Below, piece after piece: positions 45,091 through 54,328 of a stretch of DNA of 64,000 bases. The translations under genes and the position numbers were made by a program. Location of the stretch: positions 27,210 to 91,209 of the forward strand of contig CAZIMB010000001.1 in NCBI GenBank assembly GCA_964540275.1, read 5' to 3'. The notes below the pieces were generated by a model, which saw only the letters and a program-made list of their open reading frames with translations, was not told the DNA's origin and did not search any database. Source of the DNA: an uncultured Nitrospirota bacterium (GTDB lineage Bacteria > Nitrospirota > Thermodesulfovibrionia > Thermodesulfovibrionales > Dissulfurispiraceae). The stretch's first letter is position 1. Each line of letters starts with the position of its first letter.

Positions 45091-46032
45091 TTATACAAAC
45101 AGTGAGCTTACTGATGCCTCCTCATGAATCCTTTTTATTGCCTCTGCCAAAAGAGAAGAGATGCTCAATACCTTTAATTTATTACAGATATTTAATTTAT
45201 CATCCAGTGGGATTGTATCTGTTGTTATGACCTCTTCAAGAACAGAGTTGTTTATCCTTTCAATAGCAGGTCCTGAAAGGACTGCATGTGTACATGCTGC
45301 GAATACCCTCCTTGCACCGTTATCTTTTAATGCTTGTGCTGCCTGAGTTGTTGTGCCAGCTGTGTCTATCATATCATCAAGAATTATAGTATCTTTATCT
45401 TTTACATTTCCAATTACATTCATGACCTTAGATACATTTGCAGCCTCACGTCTTTTATCAATAATAGCAAGTGAGGCATCCAGCCTTTTTGCAAAGGCCC
45501 TTGCCCTTTCAACACCTCCAGCATCTGGAGATACTATTACAAGATCGGAATAGGAGCATTTTTTTATATATTCAAGCAGTACAGGTGCAGCATATAAATG
45601 ATCAACAGGTATATTAAAAAAACCCTGTATCTGAGCAGCATGGAGATCTATTGTTAAAACTCTATGCGTGCCTGCTGCTGTAAGCAGGTCTGCTACAAGT
45701 TTTGAAGATATAGGAACCCTTGGTTGCACCTTTCTATCCTGTCTTGCATAACCATAGTAAGGGATTACTGCGGTTATTCTCCTTGCAGATGCCCTCTTAA
45801 GGGCATCTATAATTAACAACAATTCCATTATATTATGATTAATAGGCGTACAAGTAGGCTGTATAACAAAAACATCTGCACCTCTGATATTTTCATTAAT
45901 CTGGACAGCTATTTCTCCGTCACTGAATGTAGATACAGTTGCATCTGTAAGTGGGATACCAATCTTCTCGCTAACTTTAACAGCGAGCGGCCTATTAGCA
46001 TTTCCAGTGATAAGTTTAATTCCGTCAGGCAT
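45091..46032 (-). CDS. prs: Ribose-phosphate pyrophosphokinase
   Basis: Start set at [10 protein letters not shown] because GGGAGGT lies 4 nt upstream. [11 protein letters not shown] and [12 protein letters not shown] motifs. Confidence 0.93.
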
Positions 46033-46067
46033 TTTACCTCCCACCTGTTTAAATTATTTCATTTTTA

Positions 46068-46139
46068 CTGGGGCGCCAGGATTCGAACCTGGGAATGGCA
46101 GATCCAAAATCTGCTGACTTACCGCTTGTCGACGCCCCA
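46068..46139 (-). tRNA. tRNA-Gln (anticodon UUG); CCA not encoded
   Basis: The minus-strand sequence is TGGGGCGTCGACAAGCGGTAAGTCAGCAGATTTTGGATCTGCCATTCCCAGGTTCGAATCCTGGCGCCCCAG. It has a 7-bp acceptor stem, a GCAGA/TCTGC anticodon stem with loop TTTTGGA, and a T-arm CCAGG-TTCGAAT-CCTGG. It is close to E. coli tRNA-Gln. Confidence 0.92.
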
Positions 46140-46199
46140 AAAATGTTTAATGAATAATGGTTAGTACACCCTAAAATCTTTTTTAAATCTTATTATTTA

Positions 46200-47069
46200 C
46201 TATTCGGCAATAGTCAACACCACCGAATTCCAGTAGGATGAAAAGATTTTTGATGCACTTAAGGCCTTCTCCTTATTATCAAAAAGACCGAAGACTGTAG
46301 AACCACTACCACTCATCAAAGCAAATGCAGCTCCTGCTTGCATCATTTTTATTTTAATATCTGAGATAATAGGATATTTTTTTGTTACAACAGATTCAAA
46401 ATCATTCTTAATAAGCGACTTCATAGTCGCTATATCCCCTGTTTTAAGGGCATTATATATTAACTTGATATTATTAATATTATCTACTGTTTTTGTCAAT
46501 TCTATATCTTTATATACAAAACCTTTTGAACTAATTTCCCTATATGCCCAAGCAGTTGATATGGAGATAAACGGTTTTACCAATAATAATATATACGATT
46601 TTTTTATATGCAGGGGTGTTAGGATATCTCCCTTTCCTTCAACTATTGCCATTGGACAATGAAAAAAAAATGGCACATCAGAGCCGATCATGGTGCTTAA
46701 TTTTATTAATTCACTATTGTTTAATTTGAGGTCCCATAATTGGTTCAGCCCCATAAGTGTATAAGCTGCGTTACTACTTCCTCCCCCAAGGCCTGCACCA
46801 ATAGGTATTTTTTTTTCAAGGGTTATTTTTACCCCACTTTTTATACAAGTATATTCCTGTAATACCTTAACTGCCTTTAATATAATGTTTTCATCAGCAT
46901 TTATCTTAATGTTGCTAAAAAGCTCAATTTTATCTGAGTTTTCAAAAATTAAGCTATCATACAAATCTATGCATTGCATCAGAGAGATTATATTATGATA
47001 ACCATCATACCTTCTGTTAAGGACATAAAGGGACCAATTAATTTTGGCAGGTGATTTTAATGTGATCAT
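46200..47069 (-). CDS. ispE: 4-diphosphocytidyl-2-C-methyl-D-erythritol kinase
   Basis: PAKINWSLYV...; GHMP kinase motif PIGAGLGGGSSNAA. Confidence 0.9.
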   Translation of the reverse strand: MITLKSPAKINWSLYVLNRRYDGYHNIISLMQCIDLYDSLIFENSDKIELFSNIKINADENIILKAVKVLQEYTCIKSGVKITLEKKIPIGAGLGGGSSNAAYTLMGLNQLWDLKLNNSELIKLSTMIGSDVPFFFHCPMAIVEGKGDILTPLHIKKSYILLLVKPFISISTAWAYREISSKGFVYKDIELTKTVDNINNIKLIYNALKTGDIATMKSLIKNDFESVVTKKYPIISDIKIKMMQAGAAFALMSGSGSTVFGLFDNKEKALSASKIFSSYWNSVVLTIAE

Positions 47070-47085
47070 GATTATATTGTAAGAA

Positions 47086-48858
47086 TTAATCCTTAGCCTT
47101 AGTTTTTAAATCCCTAATTTTTAGCTCTACTCTCTCTTTGAGGCCTTCTTCCTTTTCATGAAATTTTAATGCCTCATTCCATGCTTTTATTGCTTCATCA
47201 ATATTACCTAATTTCTCATATACATCACCTAAATGCTCATAAATAACTGGATCATCTTTCACATATTCTATTGCCCTTTTAAGTGTTTTAAGGGCCTCAT
47301 CAAGTCTATTAAGCCTGAAGTATACCCACCCGAGGCTGTCAATTATATAACCACTATTCGGCTTTAGTTCAATTGCCCTTTCTATAAGATGCAATGCCTC
47401 CATTAGGTTAATATTCCTATCAGCATAGGAATAGCCAAGATAGTTTAATGAATCAGCATTATTAGGGTTAATCTCAATTGCTCTTTCTAAGGCATTGACC
47501 ATATCATTAAATCTATCAGTCTTGTCATATACAATGGCAATTATAAAATATAATTCATCATTGTCTGGGAAACGAAAAAGGGCGTCTATTAGAATATCTT
47601 CTGCTTTTGCATATTCCTTCATTTGTATATATGTGTTTGCAAGATATGCATAGATTTCGGGCTTTTCTTTCTCAAAGGTCAATATTTCTTCATAAATATT
47701 AACAGCATCACTATAAAGCTTCTGAACTGAATATATAGAGGCCATAGAAAGAAAGGCATTTATATTTTTCGGATCAATTGATAATATCTTTTTTAATTCA
47801 TCTATTGCCTCATTATACCTTTTTAATCCTTCCAATGAAAGGGCAAGATAATATCTCACTGCTATATCATCAGGCTTTGCCTCAAGTATTAATCTAAATG
47901 CATAAACAGACTTTTCATATTGCCTTTCTTGTAAATATAAAAAGCCTAATCTCTGATATATATCCAGATTTTTAGGAATAATTTTTAAAAGTTCTTCTAA
48001 CTCACCAATGGCCTTATCATAAGATTTCTCTGTTATATATAGTTGGGTGAGTCTTTCCCTAGCAAAGAGATTATAGGGATTAATTCTCAAAGCTGTTTTA
48101 TAATAGCCTTCCGCAGAAATCAAATCCCTTTTTGTCTCGCTAATAATACCAAGATTTGTGTAAGCAGCATCAAAATTTTGATTTATAGATATAATTTTTA
48201 AAAATATCTCTTCAGCCTTTGTATATTCCTTTTTTTCTAAATTAATAGAGCCGATATAATAAAGAGCCATTGAATTTTCAGGTTCCATTTCTATAATTTT
48301 TTCAAGGAGTTCTAATGATCTATTATAATCGCCAACAGTGGCATATAAAATTGCAAGCATTAGGGCATGATCTGTCTTTTCAGGTTCTAATTTTATAAGC
48401 CTTTCATATATCTCTATAGAATTTTTTATCCTTTTTTTTGAGTTATATAGCTCAGCCAAAAGTGACAGAGCAGGTGCATAATTAGGATCAGAAACAATTA
48501 TTTCCTCTAATACTGGTATTGCCTCATCAATCCTTCCAAGCCTAACCAGCATCTGGGCAAATTTTTTCTTTAGATATAGAGAATCTGGATCTAATGCTAA
48601 TGCCTTTGAATAACGATTTAAAGCCTCTTCCCATTTAGCAGTTATCTCTGCTTCATACCCAAGTAAAAATTCAAGATAGGCATCTCTTTCAGAATTTTGT
48701 GAGAGGGAAGTGGTATCTATCTCTCTTAATTCAGTCAATCCATTAGTAAAAATGATAAAGTCGCTGGCTTTAAGATTTGTAGAATATGAGACCATTAGAA
48801 GATATAAAAAAATAGTTAAAGTGATAAATAAGGTTTTTTTTTGTAAATTTAAAAGCAT
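47086..48858 (-). CDS. Tetratricopeptide-repeat protein with N-terminal signal/anchor
   Basis: 590 aa. About 15 consecutive 34-residue TPR units (..A...Y..AL..DP.N..A...LG..Y..). Hydrophobic N-terminus. Confidence 0.8.
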   Translation of the reverse strand: MLLNLQKKTLFITLTIFLYLLMVSYSTNLKASDFIIFTNGLTELREIDTTSLSQNSERDAYLEFLLGYEAEITAKWEEALNRYSKALALDPDSLYLKKKFAQMLVRLGRIDEAIPVLEEIIVSDPNYAPALSLLAELYNSKKRIKNSIEIYERLIKLEPEKTDHALMLAILYATVGDYNRSLELLEKIIEMEPENSMALYYIGSINLEKKEYTKAEEIFLKIISINQNFDAAYTNLGIISETKRDLISAEGYYKTALRINPYNLFARERLTQLYITEKSYDKAIGELEELLKIIPKNLDIYQRLGFLYLQERQYEKSVYAFRLILEAKPDDIAVRYYLALSLEGLKRYNEAIDELKKILSIDPKNINAFLSMASIYSVQKLYSDAVNIYEEILTFEKEKPEIYAYLANTYIQMKEYAKAEDILIDALFRFPDNDELYFIIAIVYDKTDRFNDMVNALERAIEINPNNADSLNYLGYSYADRNINLMEALHLIERAIELKPNSGYIIDSLGWVYFRLNRLDEALKTLKRAIEYVKDDPVIYEHLGDVYEKLGNIDEAIKAWNEALKFHEKEEGLKERVELKIRDLKTKAKD

Positions 48859-48921
48859 AACTTATTATCACATATATAAGTTAAAAACTAAAAGGTAATT
48901 TGAACATTTTTCTTTTCTATG

Positions 48922-48950
48922 AAAAAAAGGAGGCAATCTGCCTCCTTTTT
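48922..48950 (-). terminator. Rho-independent terminator closing the rSAM/peptide operon
   Basis: Stem GGAGGCA (48929-48935) / TGCCTCC (48939-48945), 3-nt loop. On the minus strand T7 follows it (plus-strand A7 at 48922-48928). On the plus strand T5 follows it, so it could act in both directions. Confidence 0.8.
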
Positions 48951-48975
48951 CATATTGTATTATTGTCATAATTTT

Positions 48976-49038
48976 TTAGCAAGAACCTTTGCACTTACAG
49001 GTAGTTGCTGCCTTCTTGGAGATCTTAATTATTTTCAT
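48976..49038 (-). CDS. Unannotated 20-aa Cys-rich peptide MKIIKISKKAATTCKCKGSC (candidate RiPP / cofactor precursor)
   Basis: Hand-translated, below the ORF-track size cutoff. ATG at 49038-49036, TAA at 48978-48976. SD GGAGGTG (49045-49051) lies 6 nt upstream. It sits 48 nt downstream of the radical SAM/SPASM gene stop on the same strand, and the terminator follows 26 nt later. Confidence 0.6.
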   Translation of the reverse strand: MKIIKISKKAATTCKCKGSC

Positions 49039-49086
49039 AAAAGACACCTCCCTTTCTTAGGGTATATTCTGTGCTTCATGCAACAG

Positions 49087-50238
49087 TTATAATTTAATTA
49101 TACCATACATATGGCATTTGTAAAGATCTTTTTTACCTTTATTACCGCTTTGTTCTGCCCTATACCTGCATCCCCCTCTGCAAAGATCTATAAACCTACA
49201 ATTAATTTTATTGCATTCCAGATCCTCCAGTTTGATAGGATTTATTTTCTTCCACGTCTTAATAAGACCCTCATCAATAGAACCAACAGGCATGTCAGAA
49301 TAAAAGGCGCATTTGGATATATTGCCATTTGCTAAAACTGATACAAGATTAAGTCCACATCCATATCCACCTTCACTACTATGTAGCCCTGTTCCAAAAC
49401 CAAAATTCAAATATTTTCCACCTATCTCTGGAGAGACCATCAAAGATTGATCTTTTTTAAGATTGCCCACTTCACATGGCACATCTACTGTCCACTCCTT
49501 AATCCCTAATTTCTTAAATAAATTCTCCATCGCCTCAAACTCATCAAGATTTCCCCTGTGAACCATTGTGGCAATAGAAACAGTAATCCCAAAATCAATA
49601 GATTTAATTAATTTTTCCATGACTATTTTATATGTACCCTTGCCTCTTAAGATCTCATGACCCTTTTCCATGCCGTCAATACTAAACTGTATCTCATCAA
49701 CATTAAGCCTTTTTATAAGATCATCTTTTAGTAATAGACCATTTGTAAATAGGATCTTTCTGAAGCTGTATCCTGAGAGCATCTCATTTATCTCATTAAA
49801 ACCACTATGCATACATGGCTCACCTCCTGTTATAAGAAGGCGAAGCCCCTGCATGTATTCAAACTCATCTAATATATTTTTTATTTTATTTAGATCCAAC
49901 TCTTGATTTTTTGGTTGGCCTATATAACAATGGCTACACCTTAAATTGCATTTATCAGTAATCTGGAGTTCTAAATATCTTAAAGATGGCTCAGGTGATT
50001 TAACAAGAGGAGGTCTTTTTATATCAACCCTTTCTTTTGTTAAAATCCCTTCAGATAGGCAATATTCAATAAAACTATGATCTGCTGTTTTTCCATTACA
50101 TCCATCAGATGAGGCACACCTTTTTAAGAAATCAAAGGCAGGATCATCTAATTCATAGAGATTATCTTCTTTTATATTATAAACACATGGTTTTTCTAAC
50201 CACTTTAGGGCACATTTGTCAGAAAGATAATATCTCAT
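49087..50238 (-). CDS. Radical SAM / SPASM-domain peptide-modifying enzyme with an N-terminal extension of about 85 aa (candidate RRE)
   Basis: Radical SAM CNLRCSHC. C-terminal SPASM-type Cys pattern C-x15-C ... CNKINCRFIDLCRGGC ... C (7 Cys, two auxiliary clusters). The N-terminal LKWLEKPCVYNIKEDNLYELDDPAFDFLKRC region precedes the core. Confidence 0.85.
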   Translation of the reverse strand: MRYYLSDKCALKWLEKPCVYNIKEDNLYELDDPAFDFLKRCASSDGCNGKTADHSFIEYCLSEGILTKERVDIKRPPLVKSPEPSLRYLELQITDKCNLRCSHCYIGQPKNQELDLNKIKNILDEFEYMQGLRLLITGGEPCMHSGFNEINEMLSGYSFRKILFTNGLLLKDDLIKRLNVDEIQFSIDGMEKGHEILRGKGTYKIVMEKLIKSIDFGITVSIATMVHRGNLDEFEAMENLFKKLGIKEWTVDVPCEVGNLKKDQSLMVSPEIGGKYLNFGFGTGLHSSEGGYGCGLNLVSVLANGNISKCAFYSDMPVGSIDEGLIKTWKKINPIKLEDLECNKINCRFIDLCRGGCRYRAEQSGNKGKKDLYKCHMYGIIKL

Positions 50239-51257
50239 CTTTTATAATATAAAATATCTTTGCTAACATTCCACACATTACCTGTACCAGTTAGAAGCAT
50301 AGCCTGTGATAATTCACCCTTTAACTTTTTAAGAACAAATTCTACCCCTTCCTTGCCACCACCAATTGATGCAATTGCCAGAGGTCTTCCTATAAGTACA
50401 GCATCAGCACCCAAAGCTAACATTTTTAAAACATCTGGACCGCTTCTTATGCCTCCATCTGCAAAGATTGTTATTTTCCCCTTAACTTTTTCAGCTATTT
50501 GAGGAAGCACATCAGCAGAACCAGGCATATGATCAAGTATCCTCCCGCCATGGTTAGATACTACTATTGCCTTAGCACCTGTATTTACAGCTAATTCTGC
50601 CTCATCAGGTGTCATGATTCCTTTAATTATAAAAGGCAAATTTGTTGATTGCACTAATTCTACTAATTCTTCAAAACTCTTTGTGCTTACAGGCTGGCCC
50701 TTTAAAGCCATAGTAATTAAGCCTGCTCCATCAATATCTATTCCTACTGCTAATGCACCTGCATCCTCAGCAATCCGAATACGTTTTATAATCTCTTCCT
50801 GTGACCGTGGTTTAATAATAGCAATCCCCCTACCATTATGTTTTGATATTGCCCTAATACCACTGCCATACATCTCTGGATCTGCTCCGTCTCCAGTCAT
50901 AGCAATTGTGCCTGCCCTAATTGAACCAGCTACAATCTCATAAATAAATTCCTCTTCCGTTATTCTCCCACCCATATTATAAGTAGTACCTGTCATAGGT
51001 GCTACTAGTATAGGCATAGTAAGTTTTATACCCCACAAGTCAAAGGATGTATCTGGTTCCTTTTTATTATGAATAGTACGCATATTTAATTTGTAAGAAG
51101 CTAATGCCTCTATATTTGCAATAAATGAAGAACCGGTTCCAATCCCACCCATTCCAGGAACCTTACCAGCACATGCCCTACCATTACATATAGGACATAC
51201 AATACAGAAATCTGCAAGCTTTTCTTTAGCGTTTTTTCTTATAGTTTCTATATCCAT
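50235..51257 (-). CDS. FMN-dependent alpha-hydroxy-acid oxidase/dehydrogenase family protein (LldD-like TIM barrel) with an N-terminal 4-Cys motif
   Basis: CIVCPICNGRAC near the N-terminus. TIM-barrel FMN-site pattern ...PILVAPMTG..., IIKGI, VVSNHGGR, ADGGIRSGPDVLKMLALGADAVLIGRP. The stop overlaps the rSAM start (ATGA at 50235-50238). SD GGGGGA upstream. Confidence 0.85.
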   Translation of the reverse strand: MDIETIRKNAKEKLADFCIVCPICNGRACAGKVPGMGGIGTGSSFIANIEALASYKLNMRTIHNKKEPDTSFDLWGIKLTMPILVAPMTGTTYNMGGRITEEEFIYEIVAGSIRAGTIAMTGDGADPEMYGSGIRAISKHNGRGIAIIKPRSQEEIIKRIRIAEDAGALAVGIDIDGAGLITMALKGQPVSTKSFEELVELVQSTNLPFIIKGIMTPDEAELAVNTGAKAIVVSNHGGRILDHMPGSADVLPQIAEKVKGKITIFADGGIRSGPDVLKMLALGADAVLIGRPLAIASIGGGKEGVEFVLKKLKGELSQAMLLTGTGNVWNVSKDILYYKR

Positions 51258-51608
51258 CTCTTATCCCCCGCTACAGATTTTTTTTAATTTTAACCTAAAA
51301 ATCAATTTTCTTTCAGCTTAGACACAAAAATATAAAATTTTTGCTTCTTTTCAATAATAAATTATGCTCCATTTTTTCAGCTCCATGACAACGTATATTT
51401 TTAAAGTAAAACTTTAAAAAATAGTTGTCCATTAATTTTTTTTTTTAAAAGCTGCAGAACCTTCTTTATATTTAACAGGACACTCTTGAGGAAAGAAGAC
51501 CTCAATTAGAAGGTATTATGACAACATAACTTCCATCCTTCCTTTCATCCCGACTTTTTTATCATAATTTGTATATCTATTCATAAATTTGATAAACTTT
51601 TTGTTAAC

Positions 51609-53084
51609 ATGTTTTTAATTAATTCATTAGAAAGAAAACTTTACCAACTTATAATCTGCCGACTTGAAGGAGATAAAATTAATGATAATGCATATTGTGA
51701 TAGGATATTTAGGCTATTAGAAAAGGGAATTGGCGGATTTATAATATTTGGTGGCATTAAAGATCATATCAAGCCATTTATTGATAAACTCCAATCTTCT
51801 TCAAAAACCCCTCTTTTTATAGCTTCCGATATAGAACGTGGCGTAGGACAACAGATTAAAGGGGCTACAGATTTCCCTTGTGCAATGGCTATTGCCTCAG
51901 CCATTGATAGAAATAACCCTTCTGATATATCCATTCTTGAGGAAATGATCAGGGCTATTTCCCTTGAGGCAATAGATATAGGTATTAATATGCCTCTCAT
52001 ACCGGTCTTAGATATAAACACAAATCCTGATAATCCAATAATATGCACTAGGGCATTTTCAGATGACCCCCTAACAGTCTCTTTCTTTGGATCTAAATAC
52101 ATAGAAATTATGGAAGATTTAGGGCTAATAACCTGTGCTAAACACTTTCCTGGACATGGTGGCACATCTGTAGATTCCCACATTTCATTGCCTGTCATTA
52201 ATAAATCAAAAAAAGATTTAATGGAAATGGAGATGGTGCCATATATTAATGCAATAAAAACTGGCATCAGCAGCATAATGGTAGGTCATTTAAGCATCCC
52301 CGCCTTAGACAAAAGGCCTGCAACGGTCTCAAAAAAGATAATCACTGGGCTTTTAAAAAGGGAGTTAGAATTTAAAGGTTTAATACTCACTGATGCCTTA
52401 AATATGGATGCCATTAGGGATTACGAAAACTTATATTCAGAGTGCCTAAAAGCTGGAGCTCACATACTTTTACACCCGGAAGATCCTGATACAACAGTCA
52501 AAGAGCTGAATAAAGCACTTGAATTAGGGATGATTAATGAGACAATTATCGATGAAACAATTGAGAAAATCCTAAAAATAAAGGTTAGAATAGGAGATAT
52601 AAAAATTCATAAATGCGATTATTCAAAAAATTATGCACTATCTTCAGAAATATCAAAAATGTCTATTACCGCTGTTAAAAAAGGGGATGCCCTTTTGCCT
52701 ATTTCAGATTTTAATAATGTAAGGTTAGTTTTTGCGGGTGACACTAATTTATATCAATCGTCGTTATTAAATGAATACTTTAAGTCTAATAATTTAAGTC
52801 CTTCATCTAAAACAGTTTTTATAGCAATATTTACCAAAATCTCAGCGAGGGAGAAGGCATTTACAATAAGTGAGGAGGAAATAGAAAAAATACAAAAATT
52901 GATTAAAAATTCAGGCTATTCTATTGTAGTATCTTTTGGAAATCCCTATATTTTAAAGTTTTTTAAAGAGTCTGATATTCTTATTTCAGCCTATGACTCA
53001 TCAGAAGTGGCACAGATGGCTGTAATAGGGTGCTTAAAAGGAGAGATTCCTTTCAAGGGAAAATCCCCCATAAAGATCCCATAA
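51609..53084 (+). CDS. nagZ: Glycoside hydrolase family 3 beta-N-acetylhexosaminidase (NagZ-like, with extra C-terminal domain)
   Basis: GH3 motifs DIERGVGQQ, NMPLIPVLDIN, KHFPGHGGTSVDSH, ILTDALNM. 491 aa versus about 340 aa for minimal NagZ. Confidence 0.8.
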   Translation: MFLINSLERKLYQLIICRLEGDKINDNAYCDRIFRLLEKGIGGFIIFGGIKDHIKPFIDKLQSSSKTPLFIASDIERGVGQQIKGATDFPCAMAIASAIDRNNPSDISILEEMIRAISLEAIDIGINMPLIPVLDINTNPDNPIICTRAFSDDPLTVSFFGSKYIEIMEDLGLITCAKHFPGHGGTSVDSHISLPVINKSKKDLMEMEMVPYINAIKTGISSIMVGHLSIPALDKRPATVSKKIITGLLKRELEFKGLILTDALNMDAIRDYENLYSECLKAGAHILLHPEDPDTTVKELNKALELGMINETIIDETIEKILKIKVRIGDIKIHKCDYSKNYALSSEISKMSITAVKKGDALLPISDFNNVRLVFAGDTNLYQSSLLNEYFKSNNLSPSSKTVFIAIFTKISAREKAFTISEEEIEKIQKLIKNSGYSIVVSFGNPYILKFFKESDILISAYDSSEVAQMAVIGCLKGEIPFKGKSPIKIP

Positions 53085-54328
53085 TGAAAACCAATATCAA
53101 TCAATATCTTCAGGTCTTCAATAATAGGAGGATAACAGTAATAACTATACTTGGGTTCTCATCAGGACTGCCATTAGCCTTAACAGGAGGAACCTTGCAG
53201 GCATGGATGGCAACTACAGGTATTGATATACGAACAATTGGAATATTTGCACTCATTGGAATTCCCTATACACTAAAATTTTTGTGGTCACCTATAATGG
53301 ATAGGTTTGTTCCACCAGTGCTTGGAAGAAGAAGGGGATGGATAGTGCTTACCCAAATTGTTCTTATGATAGGCATATCTGCTATGGCTTTTGTTTCACC
53401 TCAGAATAACCCATACATATTAGGCATGTTAGCTCTAATTGTTGCATTCACCTCAGCTTCACAGGATATTGTAATTGATGCATATAGGACAGATGTTCTC
53501 AGAGAAAAAGAGAGGGGTCCAGGGGCTGCCGTATTCGTTATGGGCTATCGTATCGCAATGCTTGTGTCTGGTGCACTTGCCCTAATTCTTTCTGACCAAA
53601 TAGGATGGAAAAATACTTATCTTTTAATGGCCTCATTGATGATAATTGGAATCCTTACCACATTCTTTAGTCCTGAGCCTGAGGGGAACAAAACCCCGCC
53701 AATAAGCCTACAAGAAGCAATATGGGGTCCACTAAAAGATTATTTTTCAAGAAATGCTGCCATTTCACTATTGTTTTTGATTATTCTGTATAAACTCGGG
53801 GATGCCTATGCAGGCACATTGACTACAGCTTTTTTAATAAGGGGTGTAGGCTTTTCACCTACAGAGGTAGGAGCAATTAATAAGGGGCTTGGGCTTATCT
53901 CTTTAATTATAGGGGCAATATTCGGAGGAGCTTTAATGGTAAGATTAGGGTTATTTCGCTCACTCTTTGCATTTGGAATACTTCAGGCAGTATCAAACCT
54001 CACATTTGTATTTCTTGCATGGATTGGAAAAAATTATGAACTATTCATCTTTGCGGTTGCCTTTGAAAATCTTAGCGGAGGCATGGGAACAGCTGCTTTT
54101 GTATCCCTTCTTATGACAATATGCAACCAACGATATAGTGCTACACAATATGCCCTTTTGTCTTCCTTAGCATCCCTCGGAAGAATTTTTATAGCTCCTA
54201 CATCTGGGTTTCTCGTTGAATCAATAGGCTGGGCAAGCTTCTTCTTTATCACTATGCTTGTTGCAACACCAGGCTTATGGATACTGTGGTCAATGAAAGA
54301 TACAATATCCAACCTAAAAAGGAACTAA
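53084..54328 (+). CDS. ampG: AmpG-family muropeptide MFS transporter
   Basis: Trimmed to MKTNINQYLQ (TAATG overlap with nagZ). LGFSSGLPLALTGGTLQAWM, GRRRGW and about 12-14 TM segments are typical of AmpG. Confidence 0.85.
   Translation: MKTNINQYLQVFNNRRITVITILGFSSGLPLALTGGTLQAWMATTGIDIRTIGIFALIGIPYTLKFLWSPIMDRFVPPVLGRRRGWIVLTQIVLMIGISAMAFVSPQNNPYILGMLALIVAFTSASQDIVIDAYRTDVLREKERGPGAAVFVMGYRIAMLVSGALALILSDQIGWKNTYLLMASLMIIGILTTFFSPEPEGNKTPPISLQEAIWGPLKDYFSRNAAISLLFLIILYKLGDAYAGTLTTAFLIRGVGFSPTEVGAINKGLGLISLIIGAIFGGALMVRLGLFRSLFAFGILQAVSNLTFVFLAWIGKNYELFIFAVAFENLSGGMGTAAFVSLLMTICNQRYSATQYALLSSLASLGRIFIAPTSGFLVESIGWASFFFITMLVATPGLWILWSMKDTISNLKRN

Follow-up and report, generated by a model that had tools for sequence, protein, structure and literature searches.

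On the minus strand of the 64-kb stretch of DNA analyzed here (the window), the gene for a radical SAM (rSAM) enzyme is followed, 48 nt after its stop codon, by the start of a 63-nt open reading frame (ORF) in an AT-rich intergenic region (Table 1). Upstream, the stop codon of a gene of the FMN-dependent alpha-hydroxy-acid dehydrogenase family (FMN_dh) overlaps the rSAM start (ATGA). The 20-residue peptide encoded by the short ORF has a Lys-rich, alternating-hydrophobic N-terminal half (residues 1 to ~10) of the form M-x-I-K-K-V, which is the putative recognition segment. Residues 14–20 form a C-K-C-K-x-S-C core that stops exactly at the C-terminus and reads CKCKGSC in the window. A preliminary description of the sequence had proposed a Lys-rich 20-codon ORF with a Cys-x-Cys-x3-Cys tail, with GGAGGTG 6 nt before its ATG and located 48 nt after the rSAM stop; all of these features are present in the sequence. 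Two other readings of the same DNA were rejected, namely an in-frame GTG start at 49047 (23 aa), which falls inside the Shine-Dalgarno (SD) sequence and whose extension is not conserved, and an antisense 57-aa ORF at 48919–49092 of the plus strand. In both cases, the 20-codon frame is the only one open across loci. A six-frame search of the 64-kb window with a peptide HMM found no second copy of the peptide.

Table 1. Features of the peptide locus, with positions counted along the window.
Feature	Position (nt)	Strand	Basis or detail
Intrinsic terminator	48922..48950	minus	hairpin search; stem GGAGGCA-gat-TGCCTCC, flanked by A-run and T7
20-codon peptide ORF and TAA	48976..49038	minus	ATG 49038-49036, stop TAA 48978-48976; product MKIIKISKKAATTCKCKGSC
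Extended Shine-Dalgarno GAAAGGGAGGTG	49045..49056	minus	holds GGAGGTG (49051-49045), 6-nt spacer to ATG
rSAM/SPASM-type enzyme, 383 aa	49087..50238	minus	Pfam Radical_SAM
Sigma-70-type promoter TTTACA-N16-(TG-n)TATAAT	49097..49124	minus	11/12 match, best in region
Seven C-terminal Cys of the enzyme (294, 310, 342, 347, 353, 357, 375)	49114-49359	minus	invariant in 20 orthologs
Radical-SAM cluster motif C97-x3-C101-x2-C104 of the enzyme	49927-49950	minus	invariant in 20 orthologs
RRE-like N-terminal domain of the enzyme, aa 1-~70	50029-50238	minus	fold of model
FMN-dependent alpha-hydroxy-acid dehydrogenase-family gene	50235..51257	minus	Pfam FMN_dh (PF01070), 218 bits

The enzyme has the anatomy of a peptide maturase, as inferred from its sequence and a structural model. 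The CxxxCxxC cluster motif, the 7-Cys SPASM-type motif, the RRE-like fold, and SkfB and SuiB as closest structures fit a rSAM/SPASM maturase of the kind that the preliminary description had named, the SPASM and RRE assignments being the less certain ones. Radical_SAM (PF04055, 69 bits) is the sole Pfam match. The Pfam SPASM model is not among the matches at E ≤ 0.01, and homologs are labeled 'SPASM domain' by JGI and NCBI. The spacing of the C-terminal Cys residues is SPASM-like (G-x4-C, C-x4-C-x5-C-x3-C), with Cx4C replacing the canonical Cx2C. Homologs number in the thousands, the nearest being in Nitrospirota, Thermodesulfovibrionales, and Dissulfurispira, and the family at ortholog level is compact, with ~60 clusters at 50% identity and a clear score gap to generic rSAM proteins. 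No curated NCBIfam cutoff is reached by the window enzyme or by five distant orthologs, the best enzyme scores being ~80–98 bits against cutoffs of 265–850.

A profile search of PDB sequences placed SkfB first (E 1e-22) and also listed CteB, PqqE, and SuiB. With the AF2 model of the enzyme (pLDDT 77.5, pTM 0.80, low confidence at residues 341–383), the closest Foldseek matches are SkfB and precursor-bound SuiB, with alignments over nearly the whole chain. The first ~70 residues are modeled as a confident beta-sheet plus helices, and the domain modeled alone has a pLDDT of 89. Its top Foldseek matches are nearly all leader-binding RREs (TbiB1 with leader, SuiB, lasso B1, CteB, LynD, TruD, and McbB). 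The match to TbiB1 with leader peptide has a prob of 1.0 and a TM of 0.56; the best Foldseek E is just 0.012. At the sequence level, no PqqD/RRE match to this domain was found in Pfam or PDB profiles. Identification of the N-terminal domain as an RRE is supported by predicted fold and is not proven.

The distribution of the enzyme and the peptide was approached from both directions. A genome scan with the single rSAM protein as query gave no match. The scan succeeded with an rSAM alignment as query and one genome per species, returning 48 further loci at 36–67% identity, which with L001 and L002 make up 50 ortholog loci. The taxa are Nitrospirota, Magnetobacterium relatives, Desulfobacterota, Nannocystaceae, Rokubacteria, Actinomycetes, Dehalococcoidia, and Archaeoglobus. 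Of the 50, 35 have an ORF of exactly 20 codons that is co-oriented with the enzyme gene and closes with C-K-C-x-x-[ST]-C-stop, and a 36th enzyme-first copy of the peptide is truncated by a contig end. For the reverse test, a degenerate DNA pattern for the invariant peptide positions only was scanned over a metagenome collection, with chance matches estimated far below one. At least 119 exact matches were returned. An rSAM ortholog is nearby in 61 of the first 80 peptide-first loci, on the same strand within 1 kb in 59, at 2.1 kb in one, and on the opposite strand in one. Counting all usable peptide-first loci, the ortholog is nearby in ~93 of 117 (~80%). The figure is 129 of 153 for the full set, which combines the enzyme-first ortholog loci with the peptide-first metagenome loci, and the two genes are co-oriented in all loci but one.

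Peptide loci without the enzyme comprise some contig-end cases and some truly unlinked genes, mirrored by ~10 enzyme loci that lack a nearby peptide. Within the fetched DNA, the unlinked fraction is ~20% of peptide genes and ~20–30% of enzyme genes. No recurrent partner was found among the neighbors of unlinked peptide genes; some of these genes adjoin Fur and catalase, or rubrerythrin.

Gene order around the pair varies, and the peptide subtype tracks it across four architectures. The window's type, in which the enzyme is followed by the peptide with no third gene, occurs in 47 loci with the tail ..ATTCKCK[GS]SC. The same order accompanied by a divergent double-domain Cys-rich protein occurs in 29 loci (tail ..ATTCKCKSSC). 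A single-domain Cys-rich protein precedes the enzyme and then the peptide in 27 (tail ..SGLCKCKASC), and the peptide comes first, followed by a double-domain Cys-rich protein and the enzyme, in 23 (tail ..RGLCKCKSSC). One further locus, from Archaeoglobus, has the order peptide, single-domain protein, enzyme. That the pairing is kept through rearrangement across phyla points to a functional link and not merely inherited synteny. The peptide is genetically coupled to a single rSAM enzyme family, in several bacterial phyla as well as in Archaeoglobus.

The 20-codon ORF is a real gene whose protein sequence is under strong purifying selection. It was found in 153 loci as 127 distinct peptides, each of exactly 20 codons. 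Given that the invariant positions are preset by the search pattern in pattern-found loci, unbiased invariance is that of the 36 enzyme-first sequences only. The invariant residues are M1, I3, C14, K15, C16, and C20; S19–C20 is essentially invariant, and the peptide always terminates at Cys20. K15, K17, and S19 are the only conserved non-Cys residues of the core, and N-terminal I3 and K5 match the tail in their degree of conservation. Across 36 distinct nucleotide versions, the entropy at codon positions 1, 2, and 3 is 0.67, 0.63, and 1.34, that is, about twice as high at the third position as at the other two. Changes in the codons for I3, C14, K15, C16, and C20 in these versions are synonymous and confined to the third position. 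The stop is fixed at codon 21, where TAA (19), TGA (9), and TAG (8) are all used. Pairwise differences within core codons 14–20 are synonymous in 1806 cases vs non-synonymous in 477. The peptide frame is the sole one open in 153/153 loci, each of the other five being broken in 29–95%. The preliminary description had suggested conservation at the equivalent position beside homologous enzymes and a pattern of synonymous substitution as checks. The first was strongly passed, at 35/50 ortholog loci, and the second is present in both the codon-position entropy and the frame test.

Searches with the peptide HMM separate the true peptides (29–45 bits) from the next best six-frame segment anywhere (9 bits), with 0/32 matches in non-orthologous rSAM loci. 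The complete genome of Dissulfurispira thermophila, whose rSAM enzyme is 65% identical to that of the window, has an unannotated gap after the enzyme gene that encodes MVIRKVSKKGATTCKCKGSC with the same SD. A closer relative encodes MTIIKVSKKAATTCKCKSSC. When the window is compared with Archaeoglobus, 12 of 20 peptide residues are the same and the enzymes share 38% identity; by this comparison, the peptide is better conserved than its own enzyme.

Judged from sequence alone, the peptide gene is equipped to be expressed very strongly, with a conserved promoter of its own, an SD close to the maximum, and a separate terminator. The SD is complementary to the 16S 3′ end over 7 or more contiguous nt in 110 of 153 loci and over the full 11 nt (GAAAGGAGGTG) in 33. 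For the window's 44 long ORFs, the median is 3 and the maximum 7. The promoter-like site sits in the last rSAM codons (..LYKC..YGII..). From it the peptide is probably transcribed separately, with a 5′UTR of ~50 nt and a predicted start ~7 nt past the −10 hexamer, near 49090, a reading for which there are no transcript data. Both of its hexamers recur unchanged in 12 of 13 related loci, 52–75 nt upstream of the peptide ATG. In 104 codon columns of the enzyme, the amino acid is invariant and the codon degenerate; only three of them have an invariant third base, and two of these fall within the promoter, at a Tyr codon (TAC, −35 hexamer) and an Ile codon (ATA, −10 hexamer). Since synonymous sites are fixed within the hexamers, the DNA is constrained beyond the need of the protein. 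The terminator starts 25 nt after the peptide stop and is the sole terminator-like site in 46000–52000, so that the claim of the preliminary description that it is the only strong terminator in the neighborhood held, the distance having been given there as 26 nt. A hairpin, mostly with a T-run, lies 3′ of the peptide ORF in nearly all of the 36 loci examined. It also follows the peptide where the peptide precedes the enzyme, parting it from the enzyme genes. Such a set of signals would fit the usual logic by which a precursor is produced in far greater amounts than its enzyme.

Other neighbors are less constant. The preliminary description had spoken of the FMN and rSAM enzymes as a pair, which needs correcting, and the FMN enzyme is ruled out as a conserved partner. 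Only 3 of the 153 loci contain FMN_dh, and it truly adjoins the rSAM gene in just two of them, the window and an 87%-identical relative (L002); in L014, NAD synthase and a methylase lie between FMN_dh and the rSAM gene. None of the 80 peptide-first loci tested has it, and D. thermophila has the peptide and rSAM enzyme pair without it. The window gene scores under the LldD and MftD cutoffs. Possibly, the FMN enzyme is a lineage-specific tailoring enzyme, and it is at most that. TPR, ispE, and prs, which lie downstream in the window, were rejected as partners, being clade-specific synteny (11 loci). No protease, transporter, or any other gene is broadly conserved near the pair.

In other lineages, a Cys-rich protein accompanies the pair (82 of 203 loci by tblastn). 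It occurs in a single-domain form of ~52–77 aa with the motif C-x2-C-x-FYKE...EC-GA and a double-domain form of ~110–130 aa with 3 + 4 conserved Cys. About eight of the extracted partner ORFs are 480–520 aa, the length expected for a fusion to the N-terminus of the enzyme; L039 alone was inspected directly, the others being judged by ORF length. The Cys-rich partner has no Pfam or NCBIfam match at E ≤ 10 and is hypothetical in every source. It was not found in the 64-kb window or in the window's clade, and without it the window system may be incomplete or work differently.

The balance of evidence tips slightly toward the 20-residue peptide being a ribosomal precursor and the substrate of the adjacent RRE-rSAM-SPASM enzyme, with no direct evidence of transcription, translation, or modification. 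Most likely it would be a SCIFF-like precursor modified at its Cys tail, where the chemistry is inferred and untested. The Lys-rich N-terminal half (M-x-I-K-K-V...) would dock as a strand on the RRE-like domain, and the C-terminal C-K-C-K-x-S-C would enter the active site. A Cys thiolate of the tail may bind the auxiliary Fe-S cluster, as the substrate Cys does in CteB, where it contacts the open iron of that cluster and the RRE takes up the leader as a beta-strand (PMC8326336). The 5′-deoxyadenosyl radical would then remove hydrogen from a residue of the core, leading to at least one S-C (thioether-type) link within the peptide or to another Cys-centered modification. Thioether cross-linking of the Cys core had been suggested in the preliminary description and, without modification data, remains an inference. 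The C-terminal Cys may take part because the peptide always ends there, which suggests a need for the free C-terminus; MftC works on a C-terminal residue (PMC8326336), and PapB can link a Cys thiol to a C-terminal residue (PMC12373016).

The product would probably be a small modified peptide that remains in the cell and has a housekeeping function in redox, metal, or signaling processes. An intracellular role is likelier than that of a secreted antibiotic because the neighborhood has no conserved protease or exporter and, of the pair, the peptide is better conserved than the enzyme. Several findings speak against the substrate reading. The leader of ~10 residues is very short for RRE-dependent recognition, the RRE is recognized by fold only, the Pfam SPASM model gives no match, and ~20% of peptide genes and ~20–30% of enzyme genes are unlinked. 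As for a possible acceptor, the core has no conserved non-Cys residues besides K15, K17, and S19.

By analogy, SCIFF/CteB comes closest in mode of operation, and there is common logic with mycofactocin and PQQ. The system fails the membership tests of all of these. As in SCIFF/CteB (Tte1186, ranthipeptides), a short Cys-rich peptide is paired with one rSAM enzyme, here of inferred RRE-rSAM-SPASM type, and no dedicated protease or exporter, and CteB is among the nearest solved relatives of the enzyme. SCIFF is likewise highly conserved over a whole anaerobe group, which argues against an antibiotic role (PMC8326336). However, SCIFF has ~45 residues and six Cys and belongs to Clostridia, whereas the 20-residue peptide contains three Cys, the last of them at its C-terminus, and is spread over Nitrospirota, Desulfobacterota, Archaeoglobus, and others, often with the Cys-rich partner. 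No sequence similarity between SCIFF and the peptide was detected, the NCBIfam search, whose SCIFF peptide model is TIGR03973, giving none for the peptide at E ≤ 10. The model of the SCIFF maturase (TIGR03974) is not among the NCBIfam matches of the enzyme.

Sactipeptides (SkfA/SkfB, subtilosin/AlbA) resemble the system in that SkfB ranks top by both sequence profile and fold and in that Cys thiols are the likely reactive groups. Their maturase models score far lower than required (SkfB 59–65 bits vs 300, AlbA 81 vs 850, StsB 58–87 vs 625), and their clusters have an immunity gene, a transporter or protease, and longer, variable precursors, none of which are seen here. Mycofactocin (MftA/MftC/MftD) shares a very short precursor and, as inferred for the system here, a SPASM rSAM enzyme, an exact C-terminus that matters, and an intracellular use. 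An FMN-dependent dehydrogenase-family gene, as MftD, is also inferred to be co-transcribed in the window. Unlike mycofactocin, the system lacks MftB, MftE, and MftF genes, has the tail CKCKxSC and not GVY, and misses the FMN enzyme in nearly all loci; the MftC model gives 64–93 bits vs a cutoff of 265, and MftD 127 vs 471. PqqA/PqqE offers a precursor of ~20–24 residues, a cross-phylum distribution, and modification by a SPASM rSAM enzyme with RRE-type recognition, this last point being an inference for the peptide in all its parts. Here, however, pqqB, pqqC, and pqqD genes are absent and the PqqE model reaches 50–68 bits vs 381. PQQ is built on a Glu-Tyr C-C link, and the peptide is without Glu and Tyr. 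The substrate motif of anSME in sulfatase is C/S-x-P/A-x-R. It is absent from the peptide, no sulfatase gene is nearby, and anSME is a mid-rank fold match only.

The alternatives to the substrate reading differ in how far they can be pressed. That the ORF is not a peptide gene, being a chance ORF, an RNA element, or an attenuation leader peptide for its neighbors, is all but excluded. In its favor are the ORF length of 63 nt, the AT-rich intergenic setting, the lack of annotation everywhere, and the strong adjoining hairpin. Against it stand the wobble pattern, fixed length, rotating stop, and single open frame across 153 loci, and a Rfam search over 48700–49300 gave nothing but sub-threshold matches to the terminator hairpin. 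An attenuation leader is further opposed by the absence of tandem regulatory codons and by the peptide lying upstream, downstream, or unlinked relative to its neighbors, yet keeping its amino-acid sequence. The chance-ORF, RNA-element, and leader-peptide readings are rejected because of the codon-position, stop-rotation, open-frame, and Rfam results. A cofactor scaffold following mycofactocin or PQQ logic is a different matter, being unlikely without being excluded. The rSAM enzyme would remodel the C-terminal ..S-C-COOH, perhaps by oxidative decarboxylation or a cross-link of the terminal Cys, the FMN enzyme might serve as a later oxidant like MftD, and a peptidase elsewhere would free a redox- or metal-active molecule. 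The exact end at Cys20 with its essentially invariant S19–C20, a size in the PqqA/MftA range, and a single-copy peptide with extreme conservation across bacteria and archaea and no exporter nearby all favor this reading. So do the precedent of MftC, which acts on the C-terminal Tyr of MftA on the way to mycofactocin, a RiPP-derived cofactor (PMC8326336), and the window FMN_dh, which is partly similar to MftD and translationally coupled to the rSAM gene. On the other side, no conserved peptidase is nearby, FMN_dh is present in 3/153 loci and adjacent in 2, the MftC, MftD, and PqqE models are far under their cutoffs, and no candidate user enzymes co-localize. The conservation of I3 and K5 on a par with the tail fits recognition and does not separate the scaffold from the substrate reading.

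Slightly less plausible still, and also unlikely, is an unmodified metal- or Fe-S-binding mini-protein or accessory subunit that serves the rSAM enzyme as chaperone, ligand donor, or regulator and is not its substrate. A metal or cluster would be bound by the three Cys, alone or together with the Cys-rich partner. C-x-C-x3-C with flanking Lys does resemble metal-binding motifs, the Cys-rich partner (3 or 3 + 4 conserved Cys) is frequent, with fusion-length ORFs in ~8 loci, and weak hints come from the Fur and catalase or rubrerythrin genes beside some unlinked copies. Nevertheless, the enzyme has a peptide-binding-type domain, its nearest structural relatives modify peptides, and a flexible 7-mer with three thiols hardly offers enough ligands for a stable site. 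An accessory subunit would need neither signals far stronger than those of the enzyme nor a terminator between the genes. A bolder reading, for which the case is likewise weak, would make the peptide the precursor of an unknown peptide-derived cofactor or redox/metal-handling molecule built by the rSAM enzyme. In most lineages a novel Cys-rich Fe-S/metal partner would join the enzyme, and the users of the molecule would be strict anaerobes ranging from Nitrospirota and Desulfobacterota to Archaeoglobus. If true, this would be the third such system after PQQ and mycofactocin.

Returning to the reading of the peptide as a substrate, pairs of rSAM enzymes and peptides are already known as a kind, and the pair here is likely undescribed, judging from the literature and databases searched. 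The peptide has no Pfam or NCBIfam match at E ≤ 10 and is unannotated in D. thermophila. An exact look-up of 10 peptide and extended-ORF forms in a collection of 15 billion proteins found none, and no paper with the peptide motif or describing the pair was found in the literature searched. Neither the enzyme nor the Cys-rich partner has a curated family. The statement of the preliminary description that no such peptide family has been described agrees with every database and literature search. The peptide, which accompanies an uncharacterized rSAM enzyme in anaerobic bacteria and archaea, is a promising candidate for a new peptide family modified by an enzyme, the modification itself being inferred. 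The system is small, with two or three genes, and a cultured host, D. thermophila, has the pair. A widespread gene has been overlooked by standard gene calling. A precursor of 20 residues that is more conserved than its enzyme, shared by bacteria and archaea, and without export or cleavage genes is unusual for such systems. These traits favor a role inside the cell, for example as a cofactor, in redox or metal handling, or in signaling, over that of an antibiotic.

The DNA at the 3′ end of the gene for the radical-SAM/SPASM-type enzyme (rSAM) appears to carry information beyond the protein that it encodes. A predicted sigma-70-type promoter lies there, upstream of the 20-codon gene for the Lys-rich, three-Cys peptide. 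Only three of the 104 eligible columns in the whole rSAM gene are invariant synonymous sites, and two of these three fall inside the promoter hexamers. We infer from this, on sequence alone, that the region is under selection at the DNA level to give the peptide a transcript of its own.

Coordinates of the features discussed (L-numbers denote loci collected from other genomes and metagenomes)
Feature	Location	Strand	Remark
TPR protein, 590 aa	window 47086-48858	-	
Antisense ORF, 57 aa	window 48919-49092	+	covers peptide gene and terminator
Sigma-70-type promoter, extended -10	window 49097-49124	-	within last rSAM codons
FMN_dh-family gene	window 50235-51257	-	stop overlaps rSAM start (ATGA)
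nagZ-like gene	window 51609-53084	+	
ampG, longest ORF	window 53030-54328	+	GTG start
Cys-rich partner	L046 3838-4011	+	
Cys-rich partner	L012 3624-3953	-	
Cys-rich partner	L047 3598-3960	+	
Cys-rich partner fused to rSAM	L039 3620-5152		

The antisense ORF is ruled out as a gene: opposite the peptide ORF, none of the three frames stays open throughout the related loci, 29-90% of which have stops in any given one. The downstream TPR protein exceeds the NCBIfam cutoff for the magnetosome protein MamA (232 vs 200 bits); the model, however, has 204 positions and is matched six times over by the repeats, which probably account for a false name; the protein is probably no MamA. The longest ampG ORF opens with a GTG and shares its first 55 nt with the 3′ end of the nagZ-like gene. 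As the NCBIfam match begins only at residue 22, the real ampG start probably lies further downstream.

The companions of the enzyme vary with lineage. The FMN_dh-family gene, whose product has an N-terminal Cys cluster (CIVCPICNGRAC), adjoins the rSAM gene in the window's lineage only. Elsewhere, the rSAM/peptide pair is accompanied by a small Cys-rich protein without a Pfam family, detected by tblastn in 82 of 203 loci and not found in the window or its clade. This partner occurs in a single-domain form, with the motif C-x2-C-x-FYKE..EC-GA, and in a double-domain form with 3+4 conserved Cys; about eight extracted ORFs are as long as a fusion to the rSAM N-terminus would be.

Peptide and enzyme genes are also found apart. 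Despite kilobases of flank, no peptide gene was found near the rSAM orthologues of L019, L022, L023, L024, L026, L027 (Magnetobacterium), L030, L032, L034, and L043, some of which retain the Cys-rich partner. Such peptide-less enzymes, together with orphan peptide genes, suggest that the system is split between loci in some lineages. Neighbours of the enzyme-unlinked peptide genes include no recurrent partner. One such gene adjoins a Fur-family regulator and a catalase, both Pfam-confirmed (L157 1110-3262); those identified by eye are rubrerythrin-like and flavodoxin-like ORFs ~1.5-2.7 kb away (L117) and adjoining ORFs resembling hydrogenase-maturation (hyp) genes (L153). These neighbours weakly hint at a tie to redox, metals, or oxidative stress.
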